A DNA stretch of 64,000 nt from Bacteroidota bacterium (GTDB lineage Bacteria > Bacteroidota > Bacteroidia > UBA7662 > JAYUJN01). The notes below the pieces were generated by a model, which saw only the letters and a list, made by a program, of their open reading frames with translations, was not told the DNA's origin and ran no database searches. Made by a program: the position numbers and the translations under genes. Where the stretch lies: contig JAYUJN010000040.1 of the NCBI GenBank assembly GCA_043765195.1, forward strand, positions 22,734 to 86,733. Reading direction: 5' to 3'. Below, in pieces: positions 3,453 through 64,000 of this stretch (its first letter is position 1; each line of letters starts with the position of its first letter).

Positions 3453-4172
3453 ATGTCGTTAAAAAATACCATTTTAAAAAAACACGCCCAGCACCGCTAC
3501 CCACAGTATTTGTTTGGTAAGGCGGCGCAAGACATCGCCACAACGCACAAAACGCAGTTTAAATTGAGGGAAATAAAGATTTTAGATGCTCCCTGCGGCA
3601 CGGGCGAAACCACCTACCACCTGGCGCAGGTGAATGGCAGCACCGTAACGGGCATAGATGCGTGGGAGCCTTACTTGGCGCAGGCAAATAGCGATTTTGG
3701 GGCTGCACCCAATGTTTATTTTTATAAACAAGATATTTTTGAACACCTAAAAACTTTTGTTGGTTTTTATGACGTGATAAACATCATAAATTCGTTATTT
3801 TTGTTTAAAGAAGCCGAAAAACTCTTAATGATTGCAAAGAAAAGCCTGACTGAAAACGGAAAATTGGTGGTAATAATACCAAATACAGAAAGCCAGAATT
3901 TTTTGGACTTTCAAAAAAACGATGCCAACAAAACCAATAAATCTGTTTATACCCGAGAGCAAATTGTGGTTTTGTTTGAGAAGTGTGGCTTTGAAATCGC
4001 TCATTTACAAGGACTTGCCTATACCTCGCACGTGGTGGGTACGCCTTTTCAGCAAAAACTATCGATAGCAAAAGATTATTTTTTGCTGGTGAAAGATGCG
4101 CTACAAAAAACCAAAGGCACTCGCCCACCGAGTTATTGGTTGTTTGTGCTTACCCAAAACAATAAAAAATAA
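3453..4172 (+). CDS. class I SAM-dependent methyltransferase
   Basis: Motif I ILDAPCGTGETT followed by an acidic residue after beta-2 (TGIDAWE). No specific substrate is inferable. Confidence 0.7.
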   Translation: MSLKNTILKKHAQHRYPQYLFGKAAQDIATTHKTQFKLREIKILDAPCGTGETTYHLAQVNGSTVTGIDAWEPYLAQANSDFGAAPNVYFYKQDIFEHLKTFVGFYDVINIINSLFLFKEAEKLLMIAKKSLTENGKLVVIIPNTESQNFLDFQKNDANKTNKSVYTREQIVVLFEKCGFEIAHLQGLAYTSHVVGTPFQQKLSIAKDYFLLVKDALQKTKGTRPPSYWLFVLTQNNKK

Positions 4173-4290
4173 GCCTTAAATAAATGTTTTAAAGAGCCGC
4201 TACCCAACTTTTTGTTTTTTCTTCTCGTTTGGTATCATAACGAGTGCATACATATTTGTACCGTTAGGTTTTAAGGTTAGGTTAATGAGA

Positions 4291-4316
4291 AGCCCCACGC
4301 AGTGGGGCTTTTATGT
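4291..4316 (+). terminator. rho-independent terminator
   Basis: GC-rich hairpin agccccac-gc-agtggggct followed by a T-run. Lies 3' of the methyltransferase gene, within the conserved element 4247-4316. Confidence 0.6.
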
Positions 4317-4493
4317 TTTGGGAGTTTTATACGTTTTTTTGTTTGGGAAATAAAAAATATTTTGCGCCATTGTGGGAAAATGGCGTTTTTGGGTTGGTCG
4401 TTTGCAGCGGGAGAGACGCGATTAATTGCGTCTGTACGTAATTCGTTCGGAAAATTGCGTAGTCTGTGCGTTATTTTGGTGGAAATATGATAT

Positions 4494-4762
4494 GAGACAA
4501 GGCAGTGCCTTGTCTCTACAAATAACAACGACAATGTAGAGACAAGGCACTGCCTTGTCTCCGCAACCGTGCCTTGCCTCTACAAATAACAAAAAAAATA
4601 AACGAAATATCGTACAGACCTTGCAATGCAACGTCTGTACGGAATTATGGTAAAATGCAATGGCTGGCGTGAGACGTTCTAATAGAACGTCTCTACAATT
4701 TTGAAATAATAACAAAAAAAATAAACAAAATATCGTACAGACGTTGCAATGCAACGTCTGTG
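4494..4762. repeat. cluster of five 23-25 bp perfect palindromes with shared flanks
   Basis: Palindromes at 4494-4516 and 4539-4561 (gagacaaggca-N-tgccttgtctc), 4614-4638 and 4737-4761 (acagacgttgca-a-tgcaacgtctgt; the first copy has one mismatch), and 4671-4693 (gagacgttcta-a-tagaacgtctc). Each is followed by tacaa(a)taacaa. A ~65-bp direct repeat is also present (4580-4639 vs 4692-4762). Confidence 0.8.
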
Positions 4763-4893
4763 TGAAATTGTGATGGAAAATATTGCAACACTTCTGGCAA
4801 AATTATTGTTTATATGCCATGCCACCCAACCCTTGTAGGTATTCCCTCGTAATAAAAACAGAAAATAGCCTTATTACCGAACCTAACTAAACT

Positions 4894-5466
4894 TTGCAAA
4901 ACCCAACAGATGATATCATTTTAGGCTGCATTAACCAACAAAGACGTGCGCAAAACACACTCTACAACCAGTTTCACTCGGTTTTATTAAGTGTGTGCTA
5001 CCGCTATGTGCGCTCCGAAGACGAAGCTGTAGCCTTGATGAACTTGGGTTTTCTCAAAATTTTGAACAATATGGAACGCTACAATACCGAGCTATCGTTT
5101 GTGGCTTGGGCAAAAAGGATAGTGATAAACACAATAATAGACGAATTTCGCAAAAATAAAAACCACAGAGAGCAAATAAAATACCAAGAATTTGAGGATT
5201 TTCACGACTATGCTGGCTTGGTGGACTTTAATTTTGCGGACAAAAACATAGATGCGGAGCAAATTCACGGCTTTATAAACCAACTGCCAAACATAAGCAA
5301 ACAGGTGTTTAACCTAAGCGTGATAGACGGCTACACGCACATAGAAATAGGCAAAATGCTGGGCATTGCCGAAGGAACATCAAAATGGCACTTATCTTTT
5401 GCAAGGAAATTTTTAATAGAAAAAATAAATAAGTTAAACGATAACTTAAAAACAAAAACGGCATAA
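4894..5466 (+). CDS. RNA polymerase ECF-type sigma-70 factor
   Basis: Region 2 (YRYVRSEDEAVALMNLGFLKILNN...FVAWAKRIVINTIIDEFRK) and region 4 HTH (SKQVFNLSVIDGYTHIEIGKMLGIAEGTSK). Confidence 0.85.
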   Translation: MQNPTDDIILGCINQQRRAQNTLYNQFHSVLLSVCYRYVRSEDEAVALMNLGFLKILNNMERYNTELSFVAWAKRIVINTIIDEFRKNKNHREQIKYQEFEDFHDYAGLVDFNFADKNIDAEQIHGFINQLPNISKQVFNLSVIDGYTHIEIGKMLGIAEGTSKWHLSFARKFLIEKINKLNDNLKTKTA

Positions 5467-6675: not shown

Positions 6676-7866
6676 ATGTACAATCCATCAGAAAAATACG
6701 AGAAAAAAGCAAAAAATGTGTTCAAAAACCCAGCTATGGCACTCTTTTGCGCCGTAATAGGCACTTTTTTTCTTTGTAATTGCAGCCACGAGCTTCCCGA
6801 TAGCGACGAAGGCACGCCCGTTTTTACTGCCAACGGAATGCTAAACAACAATACCCTGAACATAGAAGCAGGCAGAAACGGCTACTATTTATACACCCAA
6901 AAAACCTTGGGCGCAGACAGCATATACAGTTTTGTGGGCAGTTTTAAGCGCACCAACGCCGACAGCAGCCACGGCATTTTGCGCATAGAACTAAGGGATT
7001 ATAAAAAAAGAACGCCCAACGAACCCATTGACATAGAAAAGGCAAGCGAGCCAAAAATGTACTATTTTCGCAACAGCAACTCCGCCACAGCCAACGGTAG
7101 CCTGCTAAAATTTATTGCAGAACCCATGGGCGTGCCGCCGTTTAGCTACGCCTGGAACTTTGGCGACGGGCAAACCTCCACCGATGCCAACACCACCCAC
7201 CGATTTACGTACTCGGGCAACCACCAAGTGCAGCTTGTGGTGCGTGATGCCCAAAACAGGGTGCAAAACCTGAGCAATCCCATTTATGTGCCGCCCACGT
7301 ACAACGTGTGCAGCGGAAATTTTTCGCACAACCGCACCAACGACCGCACCTTTGATTTTGAGGCAATGCCCACGCCCGACATGATTTGCACAAACATAAG
7401 GTGGGATTTGGGCGACGGCAATAGTGTGGTAAACAACCAATATTTTACGCAGCACACCTACCAAAAAGAAGGCGTTTATTACGTAACCATGACCATGACT
7501 TTGCGAAACCCAGCCGACAGCACGGCTGCGCCCTGCCTCGTTTCTGTATCAAAAAAGGTGGTAACCGCCAGCGTAAATGCCGCAGGTTTGGGCTTTAATT
7601 ATGTGAGCGGCTACGCCCCCACCAATCAAAATTTATCTACAATCGCCATTTATTACACCGACCAAAATGGCGAAACGTACAGCAGCGTCATGGGTTTGCA
7701 GCCGCAATGGAGCAACTTTACCATAGAAAAAACCGAGGGCTATCGGATAAACGAAAACGGCAAAGCCACCCAAAAAATAAAGGCAAATACCAATTGTAGG
7801 CTCTTTGGAGACAATGGGTACATAGATTTTAAAAACGCCGAACTAAACTTTGGCGTGGCGTACTAA
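6676..7866 (+). CDS. PKD domain-containing lipoprotein
   Basis: Lipoprotein-type signal with a lipobox Cys (FFLCNCS). Two PKD-like repeats (WNFGDGQTS...HRFTYSGNHQVQLVV and WDLGDGNSV...HTYQKEGVYYVTMT). Confidence 0.6.
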   Translation: MYNPSEKYEKKAKNVFKNPAMALFCAVIGTFFLCNCSHELPDSDEGTPVFTANGMLNNNTLNIEAGRNGYYLYTQKTLGADSIYSFVGSFKRTNADSSHGILRIELRDYKKRTPNEPIDIEKASEPKMYYFRNSNSATANGSLLKFIAEPMGVPPFSYAWNFGDGQTSTDANTTHRFTYSGNHQVQLVVRDAQNRVQNLSNPIYVPPTYNVCSGNFSHNRTNDRTFDFEAMPTPDMICTNIRWDLGDGNSVVNNQYFTQHTYQKEGVYYVTMTMTLRNPADSTAAPCLVSVSKKVVTASVNAAGLGFNYVSGYAPTNQNLSTIAIYYTDQNGETYSSVMGLQPQWSNFTIEKTEGYRINENGKATQKIKANTNCRLFGDNGYIDFKNAELNFGVAY

Positions 7867-56254: not shown

Positions 56255-56300
56255 ACCCACAAAAAAGCCCACGGCGAACCCGATAGGGTTCGCCGTGGGC
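56255..56300 (-). terminator. rho-independent terminator (minus strand)
   Basis: 15-bp stem gcccacggcgaaccc-gata-gggttcgccgtgggc. On the minus strand it is followed by a T-rich run. Lies 26 nt downstream of the adhesin stop. Confidence 0.6.
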
Positions 56301-56325
56301 TACACTTAATTTGAATACTCTATAA

Positions 56326-59300
56326 TTATTTAGAAATAATTAAACGCTGTATTTTCTCACTCTCGCCTTGTACTACTTTTAGGGTATAGTTGCCAGATTG
56401 GAACTGACGTACATCTATTTGGGTACGTACTTCCACACCTCGTTCCAAGTCCATCTCAGAAGCATACACTACTTTGCCCCTGGCATCGTACATTACTATG
56501 CTCGCCTCACCTGCATCTCCTTTTAGTACTACATTAAACACTGTGTTGCTCGGGTTCGGATACACTTTCAAAGTAAGCTCTTTGGTTATGTCCGCCAAAA
56601 CTACTTTTATCCAATTGCCTCTCAACACCTCGCTCTTGCCATCAAAGTCAAACTGTACTACTCGGTAGTAGCTCTCGCCTGTGTATGGTTCGTAGTCTAT
56701 CACACCGTATTTCTGGCGTATGTTCGTTGTGCCGAAGCCTTTTTTGGTAGCTATCAACTCTGGTGTTTCGCCGATGTTGCGTACTCGCTCCACCTCAAAC
56801 CTGTCGTTGTTTATCTCGCTGGCTGTACTCCAATCTACATACACGTGCCTATCTACAGCCCTCACGCTCAAATCTATCAGCGTTACTGGCGTAGGTGTGG
56901 CGTTGAACAAACCTACATCTATCGTAGTGTTGTTTTCGCCGCTACCCAATACGATTGGGTTTATGCGACCCGTTGCTGGGTTGGCATCACTGTCTTTGGT
57001 TGGGTCTGTGCCTATTTGTTGTGGGCTGTAATCAAAACCTGATGGCTTGCCAAACTCTACAATATAGGGTTTGCCTGGCATCAATCCGCTGAACACATAA
57101 TTGCCGTTGGCATCTGTGGTCGTGGTGGCTATCGTCGCTCCATTGCCGTCAAGCAATTTCACTACAATACCCGATACACCTGGTTCTCCTGGGTCTTGCA
57201 CGCCGTCTTTGTCCGTGTCGTTAAACACCTTGTCGCCTAAGCTCGCAGGTATGTAAATACCCATGTCCACCGTCAAGTTGCTTGCACCTGAACCCAGGGT
57301 ATATGTACCCGTTTTGCCAGTAGCCACGTCGGCATCGCTGTCTTTGGTGTCATCGCTGCCAGCATCTTTTGTGGTTATCACGCTGCCTGCTGGCTTGGTG
57401 AATATTACATAGTAGCTGCCTGGGGTTAAGTTGTCAAACAAATAATTACCATTGACATCTGTAACCTTCGTGCTTATTACCCCATTCGTAGTGGCATCGT
57501 ATAGCGTAGCTGTTACACCAGCAATACCTTGCTCACCCACATCTTGCACGCCATTGGCGTTCTTATCCATAAATACTTTATCACCTAATTTAGCAGGTAT
57601 ATATATACCCATATCTACGGTCAAATTGTTTTCGCCCGCTGCAAGGGTATATGTACCCGTTTTTCCAGTAGTTACGTCGGCATCGCTGTCTTTGGTATCA
57701 TCGCCACCAGCATCTTTGGTCGTTATTATGCTACCCGCTGGCTTGGTAAATATTACATAGTAGCTTCCTGGGGTAAGGTTGTCAAACAAATAGTTGCCAT
57801 TGGCATCTGTAACCTTGGTGCTTACTACCGCATTTGTGGTGGCATCGTATAGCGTGGCTGTTACACCTGCTACACCTGGCTCACCCGCATCTTGCACGCC
57901 GTTGGCATTGCTGTCGGTAAATACTTTATCACCTAATTTAGCAAGTTTCACAAAACCTGCATCTATGTCCGTGCGTACCTGACCTTGACCCAATACGATT
58001 GGCTGTGTGCGACCGTTCGTGCCAGCATCGCTGTCTTTCGTGCCATCGCCACCTGCGCCACCTATTGTGCCTATATAGCCCGTTGGTGTGGTAAAGCCTA
58101 CGGTGTATGTACCTGCTGGCAAGCCATTAAATACATATTCTCCGTTTGGTCCTGTAACAACACTCGCTATCGGGTTGCCGCTTGCATCGAACAACGTTAC
58201 CGTTACACCTGCAATGCCTGGCTCTCCTGGGTCTTGTACACCATCGCCGTCTCTGTCTTCCCATACAAAATTACCAATAGAACCTGGTACATAAATACCT
58301 GCATCTACCGTCGGATTGTATTGTCCACCTACCAAGGTGTAAGCAACTGTTTTACCAGTAACTGGGTCTGCATCACTGTCTGTACCATCAGCACCTATGT
58401 CTTTTTTGGTAAATATCGCATTTGCAGGCAAAGTGCTAAATCCTACGCTGTACGTGCCAGGCTGCAAGTTCACAAATGTGTATGCGCCGTTTTGGTCGGT
58501 TATCGTAGTAGATATTGGCGTACCTGCGCTGTTAAACAACGTTACTGTTACACCTGGTACACCCACTTCTGTGGCTTCTTGTATGCCATTGGCATTCACA
58601 TCGTTCCATACAAAGTTACCCAAACCAGCAAGCGGTGTATTGCTTTTCACACCTGCATCAAGGTCTCTGTTGTTCTGACCAGCAGCCAGCGTTACAGTTG
58701 GCGTTCTGCCAGTTGTAGCATCTGCATCGCTGTCTTTGGTATCGTCTGTGCCAGCATCTTTTGTGGTAAATACAAATCCTTGCGGCAAGTTGTTAAATCC
58801 TACACTGTACGTGCCAGGCGTTAAGTTGGGGAACAAATAGAACCCGTTTACGTCCGTAACCGTACTACCTACTGCGTTGCCAGCTCCGTCATACAACGTT
58901 ACTGATACGCCCTCTACACCAGGTTCGTTTGCATCTTGTACGCCATCGCCATTCAAATCATTGAATACAAAGTCGCCAAGGCTCGCCAACGCCGCATTCG
59001 GTTTGTTGATGCCCGCATCTAAGGTTTGGTTGTACTCACCCGTTACCAAGGTAACTTGTTGGGTTTCGCCAGTTGTAGTGCTTGCATCGCTGTCTTTGGT
59101 GTCGTCTGTTCCACTGTTTGATGGGCTAAATGAATAGCCAGTTGGTAAATTGCGGAATTTTACGCTGTACGTGCCAGGGGCTAATCCATTAAATATGTAT
59201 TCACCCAATGCGTCTGTTATCGTTGTGGCTATTACATTGCCCGATACGTCTAACAAATCTACTACCACGCCTTGTACACCTACTTCACCTGCATCTTGTA

Positions 59301-62300
59301 CACCGTTTGTGTTGGTATCGTACCATACAAAATTGCCCAAGCTCGCATTATTTGGCGGAGGAGTAAGGTAAATACCCGCATCTACTGTTGGGTTAAACTG
59401 ACCGCTTGTAAGCGTATAGTTGCCAGTTCTGCCTGTTTGTACGTCTGCATCGCTATCTTTGGTGTCATTTCCACCCAAATCTTTGCCCGTAAATGTATAA
59501 CCAATCGGCAATGTGAAGCCTACGCTGTACGTGCCTGGTACTAAATTATTGAACGAGTAAAAGCCTGTGGCATCGGTAATTGTGGTCGCCACTGGGCTTC
59601 CGTTTACGTCAAACAAGGTTACGGTTACACCCGATACACCTGTTTCGCCAGCGTCTTGTACGCCGTCTTTGTTGCTATCTATCCACACATAATTACCTAA
59701 ACCTGCATTCGGAGTTGAGTACAAACCTGCATCTATTGTGGTGTTGTTTTCACCAGATGCCAAAGTTACTGGGGCAGAGCGTCCACTTGATGTGTTGGCG
59801 TTGCTGTCTTTGGTTGGGTCTGTGCCTTGGCTCGCAGGGCTAAATGTAAGTCCGTTCGGACGGATAAATTCTACTGTGTAAGTGCCAGGAGCTAAGTTTG
59901 TAAAACTATATGCACCCAAAGCGTCGGTGGTCGTTGTGCCTACGGTGTTGCCACCAGCATCAAGTAAATTCACCGTTACGCCTACGATACCTGCCTCGCC
60001 TGCATCTTGTATGCCGTTTTGGTTGGCATCTGCAAATACAAAGTTACCAAGTGCGGCTGGTTGGAAAAATCCAAAGTCCACTGTTAGGTTTGAGTTGGCA
60101 TCTGGTACGCCCGCTGGGTTGTTGCTTGGGTTTTCGCCCGTTGGCTCGCCGCCTACTGTAAGGGCTACCGTGCCGCTGCGGGTTTCACCTGCTACGGTTG
60201 TTACGCCATTGTCGTTGTTATCGCCGTTGGTATTTGGGTTCGCCTCCTGACCTGCGCCTGTGCTGCTGTTGAAGCCCAATGGGTTTACAACGCCTACAAT
60301 GTAGCTGCCAGGTTTTAGGTTGTTGAACAAATAATTGCCGTTGGCATCTGTGGTGGTGGTATTGATAGCCGCTCCGTCAGGTTGTCCATCGTTGTTGGCA
60401 TCGGCATATAATTTTACCGTTGCGCCTGCTATTGGTGCTTCGCCTGCATCTTTCAAACCGTTATTGTTGGCATCTAACCACACTTGGTTACCCAAGTTCA
60501 ATGGCTGATAAAAACCTGCATCTACGTCTGTTTTTGCATCGCCACTGTTTAAAGTTACAGCATTGCTACGTCCAGTTGTGGTGTTGGCATCACTGTCTTT
60601 GGTTGGGTCTGTGCCTGTACCTTGTGGTGATGAGGTAAAGTTCGCTGGTTTCACAAATTCTACGATGTAACTACCTGGTGCCAAGTTTGCAAACAAATAG
60701 TTGCCGTTGGCATCGGTTGTGGTTGTAACTGGCTGACCGTTTGCACCCAATACTGGGTTGCCTGCTGCATCAAGTAATTTTACAATTACACCTGCTATGC
60801 CTGGCTCTGTTGGGTCTTGTACGCCGTCTTGGTTGTCATCACGGAATACTTTATCGCCCAAACTCGCTGGAACGTAAAATCCGAAGTCCACTGTTAGGTT
60901 GCTGCTGTTGTCGGCAGTACCTGCTGGGTTGTTGCTTGGGTTTTCGCCAGTTGGCTCTGTTCCTGCTGCAAGACTTACTACACCGCTGCGGGTTTCACCT
61001 GCTGTGGTTGTTACACCGTTGTCGTTGTTGTCGCCGTTGGTATTCGGATTTGCCTCCTGACCTGCACCTGTGCTACTCACATAAGTACCGCCTGGGGTTA
61101 CACCTACCACATAATCACCTGCTCTTAAGCCTGTGAATATATACAAACCGTTTGCATCGGTGGTAGTTGTAGCCAAAACCGTAGTGCCTGCTGCATTATA
61201 CAACTTAACCGTTGCGCCTGCTATCGGCAATTCACTGGCATCTTTTATGCCGTTGTTGTTGGTATCTATCCATACTTGGTTACCCAAGTTGAGTGGTTTT
61301 GTAAATCCAGCATCAATCGTGTTGTCCGTTTGTCCGCTACCCAATGTGATGGGTTGAGTACGTCCAGTTGTAACGCTTGCGTTGCTGTCCTTGGTTGGGT
61401 CTGTGCCTGCATTCGGGTTTGATGGGTCGAAGCCACTTGGTTTCACAAACTCTACAATGTATGTGCCTGGTACTACATCAAAGAAGTAATTACCATTTGC
61501 ATCGGTTACAGTGGTAACTGGCTGACCAGTTGGTCCCAATACTGGGTTGCCTGCACCATCAAGTAATTTTACAATTACGCCTGCTATGCCTGACTCGCCT
61601 GCATCTTGTATGCCATCGCCGTTTAAATCATCAAATACTTTGTCGCCTATGCGGGCTGGTTTATAGAAACCAAAATCCACTGTTAGGTTGCTGCTGTTGT
61701 CGGCTATGGTTGAACCATTATTGCTCGGGTTTTCACCAGTTGGCTCTGTTCCCGCTGCAAGGCTTACTACACCGCTACGGGTTTCGCCTGCTGTGGTTGT
61801 TACACCGTTGTCGTTGTTGTCGCCATTGGTATTCGGGTTCGCCTCCTGACCTGCACCTGTGCTACTCACAAAAGTGCTGCCTGGGGTTACGCCCACTACA
61901 TAATCACCTGGTTTTAGGTTGTCAAACAAGTATAAACCATTGGCATCAGTGGTGGTGGTAGCCAAAACCGTAGTGCCTGCGGCATTGTACAACTTAACCG
62001 TTGCACCTGCTATGATTGGCTCGCCAGCGTCTTTTACGCCGTTGTTGTTCGTATCTTCCCACACTTGGTTACCCAAGTTTACTGGTTTGTAAAAACCTGC
62101 ATCAAGCGTTTGATTGCTCTGACCTGATGTAAGTGTTACGGTTTGTGTTTTACCAGTTGTTACGTCTGCATCGCTGTCTAATTCATCATCGTTACCAGCA
62201 TTGGCAATGGTTGGCGTATAGCCAGCAGGGTTTGCAAACCCAACTGAATAAGTACCTGGTGCCAAGTTTGTAAATTGGTAGAAACCAAGTGCATCGGTGG

Positions 62301-64000
62301 TTGTAGTACCTATGCTCGCACCTGCTGCATCAAAAAGGGTTACGGTTACGCCCGCAAGTCCATTTTCGCCTACTTCTTGTACGCCGTTGGCATTTTTATC
62401 TTCCCATACGTAATTGCCCAAGGTAGCAGGGGCATAAAACCCGAAGTCCACCGTTAAGTTGCTATTGTTGTCGGCTGTGCCTGCTGGGTTGTTGCTTGGG
62501 TTTTCGCCCGTTGGCTCTGTACCTACTGCAAGGGTTACTACACCGCTGCGGGTTTCGCCTGCTGCTGTGGTTACACCGTTGTCGTTGTTGTCGCCGTTGG
62601 TATTTGGATTCGCCTCCTGACCTGCACCTGTGCTACTTACAAAAGTACCACCTGGCGTTACGCCTACTACATAATCGCCTGCGGTTAAGCCTGTAAATAT
62701 GTACAAACCGTTGGCATCGGTAGTCGTAGTAGCCAAAACCGTAGTGCCTGCTGCATTGTACAATTTAACGGTTGCACCTGCTATGATTGGCTCGCCAGCA
62801 TCTTTCACACCGTTGTTGTTGGTGTCTATCCATACTTGGTTACCCAAGTTCATTAGTGGTGTTATGGCAATGTCGGAAATATCGGAGTCATCTTGGTCGC
62901 CGTTTCCACCGTTTATTTCATCGTCGGTTACAGTACCGTCGTTGTTTGGGTCGGTGTCGGGCGTAGAATCTACGTCGTTGCCGCTGTCGTTAGAAATTTC
63001 GGCTGTGTTGCGCAAAGATGTACCTGCGTTTGCATTTACAGTCAAAACGATGTTTACGCTCTGAGACGCACCTGCGGCTATGCTTGCAATGGTTGTAGTG
63101 GCGTTGCTGCCACTTGCTGTCCATGCTGCGTTGTCGGCTGGTACAAATGTAAATCCTGCTGGAATGTAGTCCGTTACTTGGGTATTGGTTGCTACTACGT
63201 TTCCTTGGTTAAATACCTCTACTTTAAAGGTTACTTTGCTACCAATTACGATTGGCGTAGGTGCAGAAGCAACGGTTTTGCGTAGTGCAAGGTCAAAGCG
63301 TATGCTGTTGAAACCAAAGTCGTAGGTATGGTTGTTTTCGCCATAACCGCCTGTGGTAAGTGCTTTTATTACGTTTGAGCCGCTGGTTGTGCCATCGTTG
63401 TCTATGGCATCGTTTGAGCCTTGGTCGGCTGGGCTAAGGGTTAAGCCAGCAAGTGCCGTGGCGTTTGCGCCTGCGGTTGGTATGCGTATTTCGTAGTTTG
63501 TGTTTGGTGCCAGACCCGTAAAAATGTAATTACCGTTGGCATCAGTGATTTTTGTAGCCACTAAGTTGCCATTTTGGTATAGTTGCACGGTTACGCCTGC
63601 TCTGCCTGTTTCGCCAGCATCTTGTATGCCGTCGCCGTCGGTATCGTTCCATACACGGTTACCTATTTCTATCGGAGCCAAGCCACACATTACTTCTATG
63701 TCGCCCACACCGTTTGCCTTACTAAACGTAGAAGCATCAAAAGATTCATATAACTCATACTGAGTACCTATTTGTCCGTTTGTATTAGACATGTGGGCTA
63801 TACCACCCGTTCTTATCCTACCACCTGGGTCCATGATTGTGGTTAGCACTTCACCAGAACCTGGTAACGTGGCTATACCACCTTGGGCAGATTCTTGGTG
63901 CGCAGGAAATGGGTCTTCTTGGTAGTAAAATTCACCACCGCCTATGCCTTGTCCGTTGTTTGCGCCTGATGTAGTAGTTGTAATGCCGTTGCTTGTGATA
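56326..64000 (-). CDS. giant T9SS-secreted repetitive adhesin built from SdrD B-like/Cna-B-type calcium-binding repeats (5' end beyond the window)
   Basis: More than 2500 aa. The reading frame stays open to the window edge and the ORF-track start is a GTG. Contains at least 20 ~110-aa repeats, each with a DxNxDGxxDxxE-like motif and a TDANGxYxF core (e.g. LGNQVWIDTNNNGVKDAGEPIIAGATVKLY...TTTDANGLYIF). C-terminal T9SS sorting domain (LKVYPNPSNTVFNVVL...GNYTLKVV). Confidence 0.8.
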   Translation of the reverse strand, partial: ITSNGITTTTSGANNGQGIGGGEFYYQEDPFPAHQESAQGGIATLPGSGEVLTTIMDPGGRIRTGGIAHMSNTNGQIGTQYELYESFDASTFSKANGVGDIEVMCGLAPIEIGNRVWNDTDGDGIQDAGETGRAGVTVQLYQNGNLVATKITDANGNYIFTGLAPNTNYEIRIPTAGANATALAGLTLSPADQGSNDAIDNDGTTSGSNVIKALTTGGYGENNHTYDFGFNSIRFDLALRKTVASAPTPIVIGSKVTFKVEVFNQGNVVATNTQVTDYIPAGFTFVPADNAAWTASGSNATTTIASIAAGASQSVNIVLTVNANAGTSLRNTAEISNDSGNDVDSTPDTDPNNDGTVTDDEINGGNGDQDDSDISDIAITPLMNLGNQVWIDTNNNGVKDAGEPIIAGATVKLYNAAGTTVLATTTTDANGLYIFTGLTAGDYVVGVTPGGTFVSSTGAGQEANPNTNGDNNDNGVTTAAGETRSGVVTLAVGTEPTGENPSNNPAGTADNNSNLTVDFGFYAPATLGNYVWEDKNANGVQEVGENGLAGVTVTLFDAAGASIGTTTTDALGFYQFTNLAPGTYSVGFANPAGYTPTIANAGNDDELDSDADVTTGKTQTVTLTSGQSNQTLDAGFYKPVNLGNQVWEDTNNNGVKDAGEPIIAGATVKLYNAAGTTVLATTTTDANGLYLFDNLKPGDYVVGVTPGSTFVSSTGAGQEANPNTNGDNNDNGVTTTAGETRSGVVSLAAGTEPTGENPSNNGSTIADNSSNLTVDFGFYKPARIGDKVFDDLNGDGIQDAGESGIAGVIVKLLDGAGNPVLGPTGQPVTTVTDANGNYFFDVVPGTYIVEFVKPSGFDPSNPNAGTDPTKDSNASVTTGRTQPITLGSGQTDNTIDAGFTKPLNLGNQVWIDTNNNGIKDASELPIAGATVKLYNAAGTTVLATTTTDANGLYIFTGLRAGDYVVGVTPGGTYVSSTGAGQEANPNTNGDNNDNGVTTTAGETRSGVVSLAAGTEPTGENPSNNPAGTADNSSNLTVDFGFYVPASLGDKVFRDDNQDGVQDPTEPGIAGVIVKLLDAAGNPVLGANGQPVTTTTDANGNYLFANLAPGSYIVEFVKPANFTSSPQGTGTDPTKDSDANTTTGRSNAVTLNSGDAKTDVDAGFYQPLNLGNQVWLDANNNGLKDAGEAPIAGATVKLYADANNDGQPDGAAINTTTTDANGNYLFNNLKPGSYIVGVVNPLGFNSSTGAGQEANPNTNGDNNDNGVTTVAGETRSGTVALTVGGEPTGENPSNNPAGVPDANSNLTVDFGFFQPAALGNFVFADANQNGIQDAGEAGIVGVTVNLLDAGGNTVGTTTTDALGAYSFTNLAPGTYTVEFIRPNGLTFSPASQGTDPTKDSNANTSSGRSAPVTLASGENNTTIDAGLYSTPNAGLGNYVWIDSNKDGVQDAGETGVSGVTVTLFDVNGSPVATTITDATGFYSFNNLVPGTYSVGFTLPIGYTFTGKDLGGNDTKDSDADVQTGRTGNYTLTSGQFNPTVDAGIYLTPPPNNASLGNFVWYDTNTNGVQDAGEVGVQGVVVDLLDVSGNVIATTITDALGEYIFNGLAPGTYSVKFRNLPTGYSFSPSNSGTDDTKDSDASTTTGETQQVTLVTGEYNQTLDAGINKPNAALASLGDFVFNDLNGDGVQDANEPGVEGVSVTLYDGAGNAVGSTVTDVNGFYLFPNLTPGTYSVGFNNLPQGFVFTTKDAGTDDTKDSDADATTGRTPTVTLAAGQNNRDLDAGVKSNTPLAGLGNFVWNDVNANGIQEATEVGVPGVTVTLFNSAGTPISTTITDQNGAYTFVNLQPGTYSVGFSTLPANAIFTKKDIGADGTDSDADPVTGKTVAYTLVGGQYNPTVDAGIYVPGSIGNFVWEDRDGDGVQDPGEPGIAGVTVTLFDASGNPIASVVTGPNGEYVFNGLPAGTYTVGFTTPTGYIGTIGGAGGDGTKDSDAGTNGRTQPIVLGQGQVRTDIDAGFVKLAKLGDKVFTDSNANGVQDAGEPGVAGVTATLYDATTNAVVSTKVTDANGNYLFDNLTPGSYYVIFTKPAGSIITTKDAGGDDTKDSDADVTTGKTGTYTLAAGENNLTVDMGIYIPAKLGDKVFMDKNANGVQDVGEQGIAGVTATLYDATTNGVISTKVTDVNGNYLFDNLTPGSYYVIFTKPAGSVITTKDAGSDDTKDSDADVATGKTGTYTLGSGASNLTVDMGIYIPASLGDKVFNDTDKDGVQDPGEPGVSGIVVKLLDGNGATIATTTTDANGNYVFSGLMPGKPYIVEFGKPSGFDYSPQQIGTDPTKDSDANPATGRINPIVLGSGENNTTIDVGLFNATPTPVTLIDLSVRAVDRHVYVDWSTASEINNDRFEVERVRNIGETPELIATKKGFGTTNIRQKYGVIDYEPYTGESYYRVVQFDFDGKSEVLRGNWIKVVLADITKELTLKVYPNPSNTVFNVVLKGDAGEASIVMYDARGKVVYASEMDLERGVEVRTQIDVRQFQSGNYTLKVVQGESEKIQRLIISK

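Follow-up and report, generated by a model that had tools for sequence, protein, structure and literature searches.

The spacer segment at positions 4410-4772 is very probably a small REP cluster, built from a family cognate to the RAYT/TnpA_REP enzymes of subclass 2.4 (Bertels group 4). Positions are those of the window, by which we mean the whole 64,000-nt stretch of DNA analysed here. The assignment is based on the anatomy of the copies, on the recurrence of the same palindrome as a family across phyla, on a pairing constraint in its stems and on a two-way link with RAYT genes of the subclass 2.4 type. Palindrome and enzyme family are already described, since Quentin et al. (2018) and Bertels et al. 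(2017) cover them. New here are the locus itself, from a lineage not sampled before, and the class B stem variant, for which JGI metagenomes gave no match.

The cluster occupies part of the spacer 4172-4894, and all of its copies are extragenic. The spacer is flanked by a class I SAM methyltransferase gene (3453-4172, plus strand) and an ECF sigma factor gene (4894-5466, plus strand), as an earlier sequence-only reading of this DNA had correctly stated. An intrinsic-terminator-like hairpin with a T-run lies 3' of the methyltransferase gene on the plus strand (4288-4312) and is context outside the REP family; a second hairpin with a T-run is found at 4364-4386, upstream of the cluster. Scanning for sigma-70 promoters and terminators gave a single palindrome-specific match, a weak minus-strand terminator-like call at the last copy, E6. 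Rfam at gathering thresholds returned no matches over the whole window, and below threshold only generic hairpin (miRNA-precursor) matches far under the cut-off. Tblastn with RAYT proteins found no RAYT gene in the window, which also contains no transposase or TnpB remnant. All contigs on which the flanking proteins were found are ENA metagenome contigs of a single strain, and the spacer is identical in each. The nearest AroA relative is 59% identical and sits on a short JGI contig that is not syntenic and is without the element. Together, the AroA matches and a gene content including GldD, PKD and ECF sigma genes indicate a deep-branching Bacteroidota lineage. In the nearest relative by AroA (L005, 2297-3190), a PDDEXK_2 (transposase-like nuclease) gene comes after aroA in place of the methyltransferase and sigma genes, and this neighbourhood is therefore not syntenic.

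All copies share the build GTA[G/C]-AGAC-stem-N-stem-GTCT, and in every one of them GTAG or GTAC stands directly at the foot of the hairpin, on one or both sides. The sequence-only reading had reported five perfect palindromes in three classes, two of them in duplicate. Its coordinates are right and its classes are borne out (A at 4494-4516 and 4539-4561, C at 4616-4636 and 4737-4761, B once), but only four palindromes are perfect around their 1 central base (4494-4516, 4539-4561, 4671-4693 and 4737-4761); the fifth, the class C copy at 4616-4636, has one C·C mismatch (4620 vs 4632). The class sequences are GAGACAAGGCA[G/C]TGCCTTGTCTC for A, GAGACGTTCTAATAGAACGTCTC for B (4671-4693) and ACAGACGTTGCAATGCAACGTCTGT for C (4737-4761). 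The same reading held that most palindromes are followed by tacaaataacaa; this string is exact only at E1 and at a half-copy, occurs as a variant at E5, and its TAC is part of a CTAC foot. Its argument that a 1-nt centre speaks against a hairpin is weak, as the units fold as single-stranded DNA into 10-11-bp stems with a 3-nt loop, at -10 to -12.3 kcal/mol (z -5.5 to -6.1). It had also missed the feet themselves, a half-copy, a fourth class (D) and the inverted arrangement of the first two full copies, all of which are described below.

The cluster begins with a decayed, unstranded copy of class D (4410-4437), AGACGCGATTAATTGCGTCT followed by GTAC, which reads GGAG-AGACGCGATT|AATTGCGTCT-GTAC. 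The palindrome is of even length and contains one G·T mismatch; its left foot, GGAG, is 1 change from GTAG, its right foot is GTAC, and its single-stranded fold reaches -5.7 kcal/mol (z -3.7). At 4454-4470 (unstranded), ATTGCGTAGTCTGTGCG belongs to a direct-repeat family, D3, and is 63-70% identical to the segments 4429-4455 and 4755-4781. Its likeness to the 3' half of class C with the downstream linker makes it, with low certainty, a possible decayed 3' half-copy. The class A copy E1 (4494-4519, minus strand; palindrome 4494-4516) carries a minus-strand GTAG foot, written CTAC at 4516-4519, and its hairpin is worth -10.6 kcal/mol (z -5.7). E2 (4536-4561, plus strand), also of class A, is inverted relative to E1, with its GTAG foot at 4536-4539 and C as centre base where E1 has G. 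The two form an inverted doublet whose 27-nt arms (4494-4520 and 4535-4561) are 100% complementary across a 14-nt spacer, and the segment 4490-4565 folds as single-stranded DNA into one 27-bp hairpin of -33.3 kcal/mol (z -13.7). Next, 7 nt after E2, comes GTGCCTTGCCTCTAC (4569-4583, minus strand), a half-copy that keeps the 3' part of class A and a CTAC foot.

Further downstream, E4 (4612-4640, unstranded) is the mismatched class C copy, with a double foot, GTAC-AGACCTTGCA-A-TGCAACGTCT-GTAC; it folds at -11.2 kcal/mol with an internal mismatch. E5 (4671-4696, minus strand) is the single class B copy, a perfect palindrome with a minus-strand GTAG foot (CTAC at 4693-4696) and a fold of -10.0 kcal/mol (z -5.9). 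E6 (4735-4761, plus strand) is the perfect class C copy, with a GTAC foot at 4735-4738 and a fold of -12.3 kcal/mol (z -5.5). E4 and E6 each lie within a 65-nt unit made of an A-rich linker and a class C REP. The two units, 4585-4649 and 4708-4772, are 91% identical and 123 bp apart, and form a higher-order, unstranded tandem module (4585-4772) that reads as a BIME-like local amplification. GTAG stands at distance 0 from the hairpin in E1 (minus), E2 and E5 (minus), that is, in three of the five full copies, and GTAC takes the place of the canonical GT[AG]G in the other two (E4 and E6). Stem GC is 50% in classes A and C and 40% in class B, with 2/4 G/C in the basal AGAC.

This concentration of palindromes far exceeds what chance would give. 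The pattern AGAC-N13-19-GTCT has 5 matches in the window, all within the spacer, vs 1.0 expected, and GTAGAGAC...GTCTCTAC (16 fixed bases, up to 3 mismatches allowed) has 4 vs 0.04 expected. No further copies were found outside the spacer within the 64-kb window and the 6.5 kb upstream of it.

The same palindrome recurs far beyond this lineage. Scanning one genome per species with the pattern GTASAGACRWKGCAVTGCMWYGTCTS, which covers classes A and C plus the GTA flank, gave at least 118 loci in at least 9 phyla, when about 0.2 matches would be expected by chance from base frequencies. Among the matches listed are 47 loci in Cyanobacteriota, 29 in Bacteroidota, 16 in Chloroflexota, 11 in Patescibacteria, 4 in Acidobacteriota, 3 in Gammaproteobacteria and 2 in Brocadiaceae, along with Omnitrophota and Gemmatimonadota. 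Their consensus is a 26-29-nt palindrome, GTAGAGAC-NNNGCA-N-TGCNNN-GTCTCTAC, perfect in its 29-bp form, in which the constancy of the foot and of the AGAC base across the compared loci (L006-L123) is fixed by the search pattern. The three stem positions free to vary and to mismatch are complementary in 143 of the 146 matches listed vs 12.5% expected. At least five compensatory stem variants occur (GTTGCA, AAGGCA, GAGGCA, GTGGCA and GTAGCA), and the commonest among the matches listed is the core of E6, AGACGTTGCAATGCAACGTCT. Variants of the form GTACAGAC... are found in Roseiflexus (L035, L036) and Bacteroidales (L037, L056). The upper stem is biased by phylum among the matches listed: GTTGCA in 16/16 copies from Chloroflexota, GTGGCA in 4/4 from Acidobacteriota, mostly GAGGCA in Patescibacteria, GTTGCA and AAGGCA in Bacteroidota, and GTTGCA with some GTAGCA in Cyanobacteriota.

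Other features of the window copies are likewise found elsewhere. Both feet are present in 75 of the 135 perfect copies, and 116 of 145 elements lie outside ORFs of at least 150 aa, both counts being among the matches listed; the GTAC foot variant also occurs in other genomes. Several genomes hold 3-4 separate loci, which are lower bounds, and clusters are seen with 6 copies in 1 kb (L106) or 3 copies at 50-bp spacing (L012). Class B stands apart: an exact scan of JGI metagenome contigs gave no match, and its upper stem, CTA/TAG, is absent from every other locus examined.

One layout recurs in unrelated phyla, namely a full REP, a spacer of 4-9 nt and a 3' half-copy ending in CTAC. It is seen in the window (4536-4583) and at L115 (~3712-3770), L122 (~264-310), L085 (~7281-7325) and L033 (~1505-1555), and a variant at L014 (~1400-1463) has two tandem 5' half-copies before the full copy. 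It may be the footprint of RAYT cleavage and strand transfer, or of slippage at the hairpin. Three IMG/VR contigs each carry one double-foot REP (L124 5618-5646, L125 2208-2236 and L126 8668-8696) with ACAGCA or AAGGCA stems, and tblastn found no RAYT near the REP in these viral loci. They may be transfer vehicles, or host-derived or misclassified DNA.

An all-against-all comparison of the ORFs within 1.5 kb of the elements yielded only one recurrent neighbour family, a ~200-aa ORF present at 8 of the at least 118 loci, in 4 phyla, with palindromes on either side of it at no more than about 45 bp. Its match to Pfam Y1_Tnp scores just over the gathering cut-off, and it matches NCBIfam NF047646, 'REP-associated tyrosine transposase', with an E-value of 2e-16; the NCBIfam score of 50-60 bits falls below the 80-bit cut-off, and the proteins are thus divergent from the curated RAYT equivalog. 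A PDB search with a profile of six members had 4ER8, the E. coli TnpA_REP, as its sole match, and the alignment contains the motifs NH[VMI]H, WQ and YI[IA]NNP. By these motifs the ORF is a predicted Y1/HuH tyrosine transposase of the TnpA_REP/RAYT subclass 2.4 (Bertels group 4) type. A tnpA_REP gene with the subclass motifs, flanked by the same REP, is found at L010, L019, L039, L076, L085 and L106.

In most members the palindrome also lies in frame inside the gene, between the HuH and the W/Y motifs, where it is translated as VETL[QH]CNVST (VETLxCNVST). Such inserts are found at L076, L085, L019, L067 and L099, with variants at L010 and L106, and the member from Plectonema (L039) is without one. 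The in-gene copies map to L076 6914-6934, L085 7285-7305, L019 414-434, L010 1052-1072, and L106 2437-2457 and 2634-2654, and their hosts include Nostoc, Uhrbacteria and Bacteroidota alike.

The link also holds in the reverse direction. In 80 metagenome loci picked by the protein alone, perfect hairpins with a GT[AG]G foot were present in 66, vs 2-5 in controls made by first-order Markov resampling, and 36 of the 80 had the GTAGAGAC/GTCTCTAC base. The intact form of class D, GTAGAGACGCGATTAATCGCGTCTCTAC, lies in or beside RAYT genes at L153 and L188. A second REP base type, GTAG-GGGC...GCCC-CTAC, was observed beside many of the protein-picked RAYT genes (L127-L206), for example as GTAGGGGCACGGCATGCCGTGCCCCTAC, of which L184 has 4 copies, some within the gene and some around it; it matches the subclass 2.4 'canonical long REP with three G-C pairs at the stem base'.

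These observations agree with what has been published on subclass 2.4 (= Bertels group 4). Its enzymes have a NH[IFV]H HuH motif, a WQ W motif and a YIxNNP Y motif, and a median length of 194 aa, and they occur in Cyanobacteria, Bacteroidetes and a scatter of other phyla; the cognate REPs come in a 'long' and a 'double foot' form, the latter having GT[AG]G on the 5' side and the reverse complement of GT[AG]G on the 3' side (Quentin et al., 2018, PMC6006769). REP insertions within the gene are reported as unique to this subclass (Quentin et al., 2018, BMC Genomics 19:475). The likeness to our copies extends to a GT[AG]G foot that abuts a fully paired stem, to the double-foot form with CTAC at the 3' end, to the host range, and to the subclass motifs and in-gene REPs of the proteins at related loci.

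Individual sequences agree as well. An extract of supplementary table 2 of Quentin et al. (2018) gives, for subclass 2.4, GTAGAGACGTTGCATGCAACGTCTCTAC (ACK69880.1, AFK04297.1), GTAGAGACGCGAT[A/T]AATCGCGTCTCT (CCB70079.1) and GTACAGACGCAC..., all of which have the foot and AGAC/GTCT base in common with window classes C and D; in this extract, GTAGAGACGTTGCATGCAACGTCTCTAC has the whole stem in common with window copies. The same extract also has, for subclass 2.4, a GTAC-footed REP, GTACAGACGCACTGTCGTGCGTCTCAA (AFM05242.1), and it has GTAGAGACAGGGCATTGCCCTGTCTCTAC (AFK02851.1), for which the table gives no subclass. There are differences too: classes A-C are odd in length (29 nt including both feet, around a 1-nt centre), several REPs in the tabulated extract being 28-nt and even, class B with its CTA/TAG upper stem is absent from that extract, and two window copies are GTAC-footed. 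Unlike a subclass 2.4 REPtron, the window has no tnpA_REP gene and only one cluster. A full-text literature search for the palindrome sequence found no relevant paper, and the supplementary files of Di Nocera 2013, a study that shows its family consensus sequences as a figure, do not give the motif as text. Also considered was the REP linked to the RAYT of Nostoc punctiforme (Bertels and Rainey, 2011), whose sequence is different.

Quentin et al. (2018) define a REP by a GTAG or GTGG 0-2 nt 5' of a hairpin with a paired basal stem of 7-20 nt and a loop of 2-5 nt, by at least 3 G/C among the first 4 basal bases or a stem GC of at least 50%, and by being extragenic, repeated and dispersed in the host genome. 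The window copies agree in basal stem, loop and extragenic position, and three of the five full copies have the required foot, the other two having the GTAC variant. Their AGAC base (2/4 G/C) and 40-50% stem GC lie at or below the GC limits, and AGAC-base REPs of subclass 2.4 are nonetheless tabulated in the extract mentioned above. The E1/E2 inverted doublet and the 65-nt tandem module (91%) correspond to a BIME/REPIN organisation. Counting against the assignment are the absence of a RAYT gene from the window, the GTAC feet of two of the five full copies, the class B stem, with 40% GC and no match elsewhere, the NCBIfam score of the associated proteins below its cut-off, and the presence of one family site in about 70 kb. 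The last of these fits the low repeat abundance of group 4, which was found in 61 species of 17 classes with about 14 occurrences of the flanking 16-mer (Bertels et al., 2017).

The best-studied relatives are the REP-BIME-REPIN systems of E. coli and Pseudomonas (groups 2 and 3; Nunvar 2010; Bertels and Rainey, 2011; Messing 2012; Corneloup 2021). In these groups TnpA_REP needs a single-stranded hairpin and GTAG and cuts and religates DNA adjacent to the REP; BIMEs are made up of paired REP and iREP units and often lie in tandem. The likenesses to the present family are the GTAG-tagged extragenic hairpin, the inverted doublets capable of forming one long hairpin (here E1/E2), the tandem amplification of REP and linker, and the single-copy Y1 HuH enzyme flanked by its own REPs. 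The E. coli and Pseudomonas REPs, however, are usually imperfect palindromes with bulges, specific to a species or genus and present in hundreds to thousands of copies, whereas the family described here is a perfect palindrome, nearly identical across phyla (within the fixed terms of the search) and apparently of low copy number. Biochemistry exists for RAYT groups 2 and 3 only, and we found none on subclass 2.4 enzymes in the literature examined.

The sequence-only reading had proposed either binding sites of a dimeric protein or REP-like elements. Its second option is upheld, as the published subclass 2.4 family; a locus-specific operator is unsupported. Perfect dyads of 23-25 bp, in several copies and upstream of a regulatory gene, are what one would look for in an array of operators through which a homodimeric transcription factor controls the ECF sigma operon or the methyltransferase gene. 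We nevertheless regard such an array as highly improbable. The same 26-29-nt palindrome lies beside unrelated genes at the at least 118 loci in at least 9 phyla, a scatter that in effect agrees with what the earlier reading had itself named as the mark of a generic REP family, here in other genomes. The sole recurrent neighbour among the matches listed is a RAYT, not a sigma or transcription factor; compensatory changes in the upper stem keep the pairing and not a fixed half-site; and four stem classes in one spacer are unlike the sites of a single regulator.

An origin as remnants of an IS200/IS605-type insertion sequence or of MITEs, making the hairpins transposon ends and not REPs, is hardly credible. 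The resemblance is real, in that the ends of these elements are subterminal single-stranded hairpins with a 5' guide tetranucleotide, handled by a Y1 HuH protein of the same superfamily and a homologous fold. The window elements, however, are stand-alone intergenic hairpins with no IS body, and neither a transposase nor a TnpB remnant accompanies them in the window; the associated proteins have the class 2 motifs NHVH, WQ and YIxNNP and not the class 1 motifs DH[VI]H and Y[IV]ENQ; and the units are single hairpins of 26-29 nt and doublets of these, not MITEs of 70-300 bp with terminal inverted repeats. A role at the RNA level, in which exapted REPs act as terminators, as stabilisers of the methyltransferase 3' end or as barriers before the sigma gene, is somewhat less remote and still unlikely. 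Effects of REPs on termination and on the stability of mRNA are reported from other systems, the stems are stable, and E6 is terminator-like on the minus strand. Against this, the terminator at 4288-4312 and the T-run hairpin at 4364-4386 already precede the cluster, most copies have no T-run after them, and Rfam gave no match above threshold. Such a role would moreover leave the origin of the elements unexplained, and it is compatible with the REP explanation.

Under that REP explanation, the unit consists of a GTA[G/C] foot followed by a hairpin with an AGAC/GTCT base and an upper stem that varies by compensatory changes (classes A-D), and a foot on both sides makes it the published 'double foot' REP. 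By analogy with groups 2 and 3, a monomeric HuH/Tyr enzyme would bind hairpin and foot on single-stranded DNA and would cleave and rejoin DNA next to the REP, so that copies are seeded or amplified. We infer that the copies of the source lineage go back to a subclass 2.4 enzyme and that the cluster grew by recombination or slippage between them. The half-copy and the mismatched copies look like decaying relics, and their presence beside perfect ones suggests that copies turn over. At the methyltransferase/ECF sigma locus the cluster is most likely a passive passenger; effects on termination, mRNA stability or local DNA structure there would be secondary at most and are hypothetical.

A more speculative proposal, to which we give rather less than even credence, is that subclass 2.4 enzymes read only the GTAG foot and the AGAC base, leaving the upper stem free to covary, that REP and RAYT form a quasi-universal pair spreading by transfer between phyla, and that the scars of full copy and 3' half-copy are footprints of strand transfer. 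Behind this proposal are the REP itself, nearly constant base for base in at least 9 phyla (with foot and base set by the search pattern) as against RAYT proteins that have diverged to 33-68% identity, and the four stem classes of a single spacer, which have only the foot and four basal pairs in common. Behind the transfer is the occurrence of single REP copies on viral contigs as well.

The outcome removes a candidate new regulatory site, the palindromes being an ordinary REP cluster, in all probability, of a published REP/RAYT family. It also documents one REP sequence family that is nearly unchanged across very distant phyla, under the search pattern used, with compensatory stems biased by phylum. 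Classes A-D, with their GTAG and GTAC feet, offer concrete substrates for the biochemistry of subclass 2.4 RAYTs. For annotation, it matters that metagenome assemblies break at such palindromes, which also give rise to spurious short ORFs (VETLQCNVST-type peptides).

Several MAG contigs start or end exactly at a REP copy (L059 5-30, L061 5584-5612 and L068 4-29), as is usual where dispersed repeats interrupt an assembly. In sample ERZ27314326 the assembly of the present locus breaks at 4182-4322, just upstream of the cluster, where two short contigs (the end of L002 and the start of L004) overlap by 141 nt (the k-mer); branching induced by the repeats, or polymorphism of the cluster between strains, may be the cause. 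At the other end of the window, a giant minus-strand ORF (56326-64000), over 2,500 aa long, runs off the right edge, and a strong hairpin with a 16-bp stem lies after it at 56266-56301.
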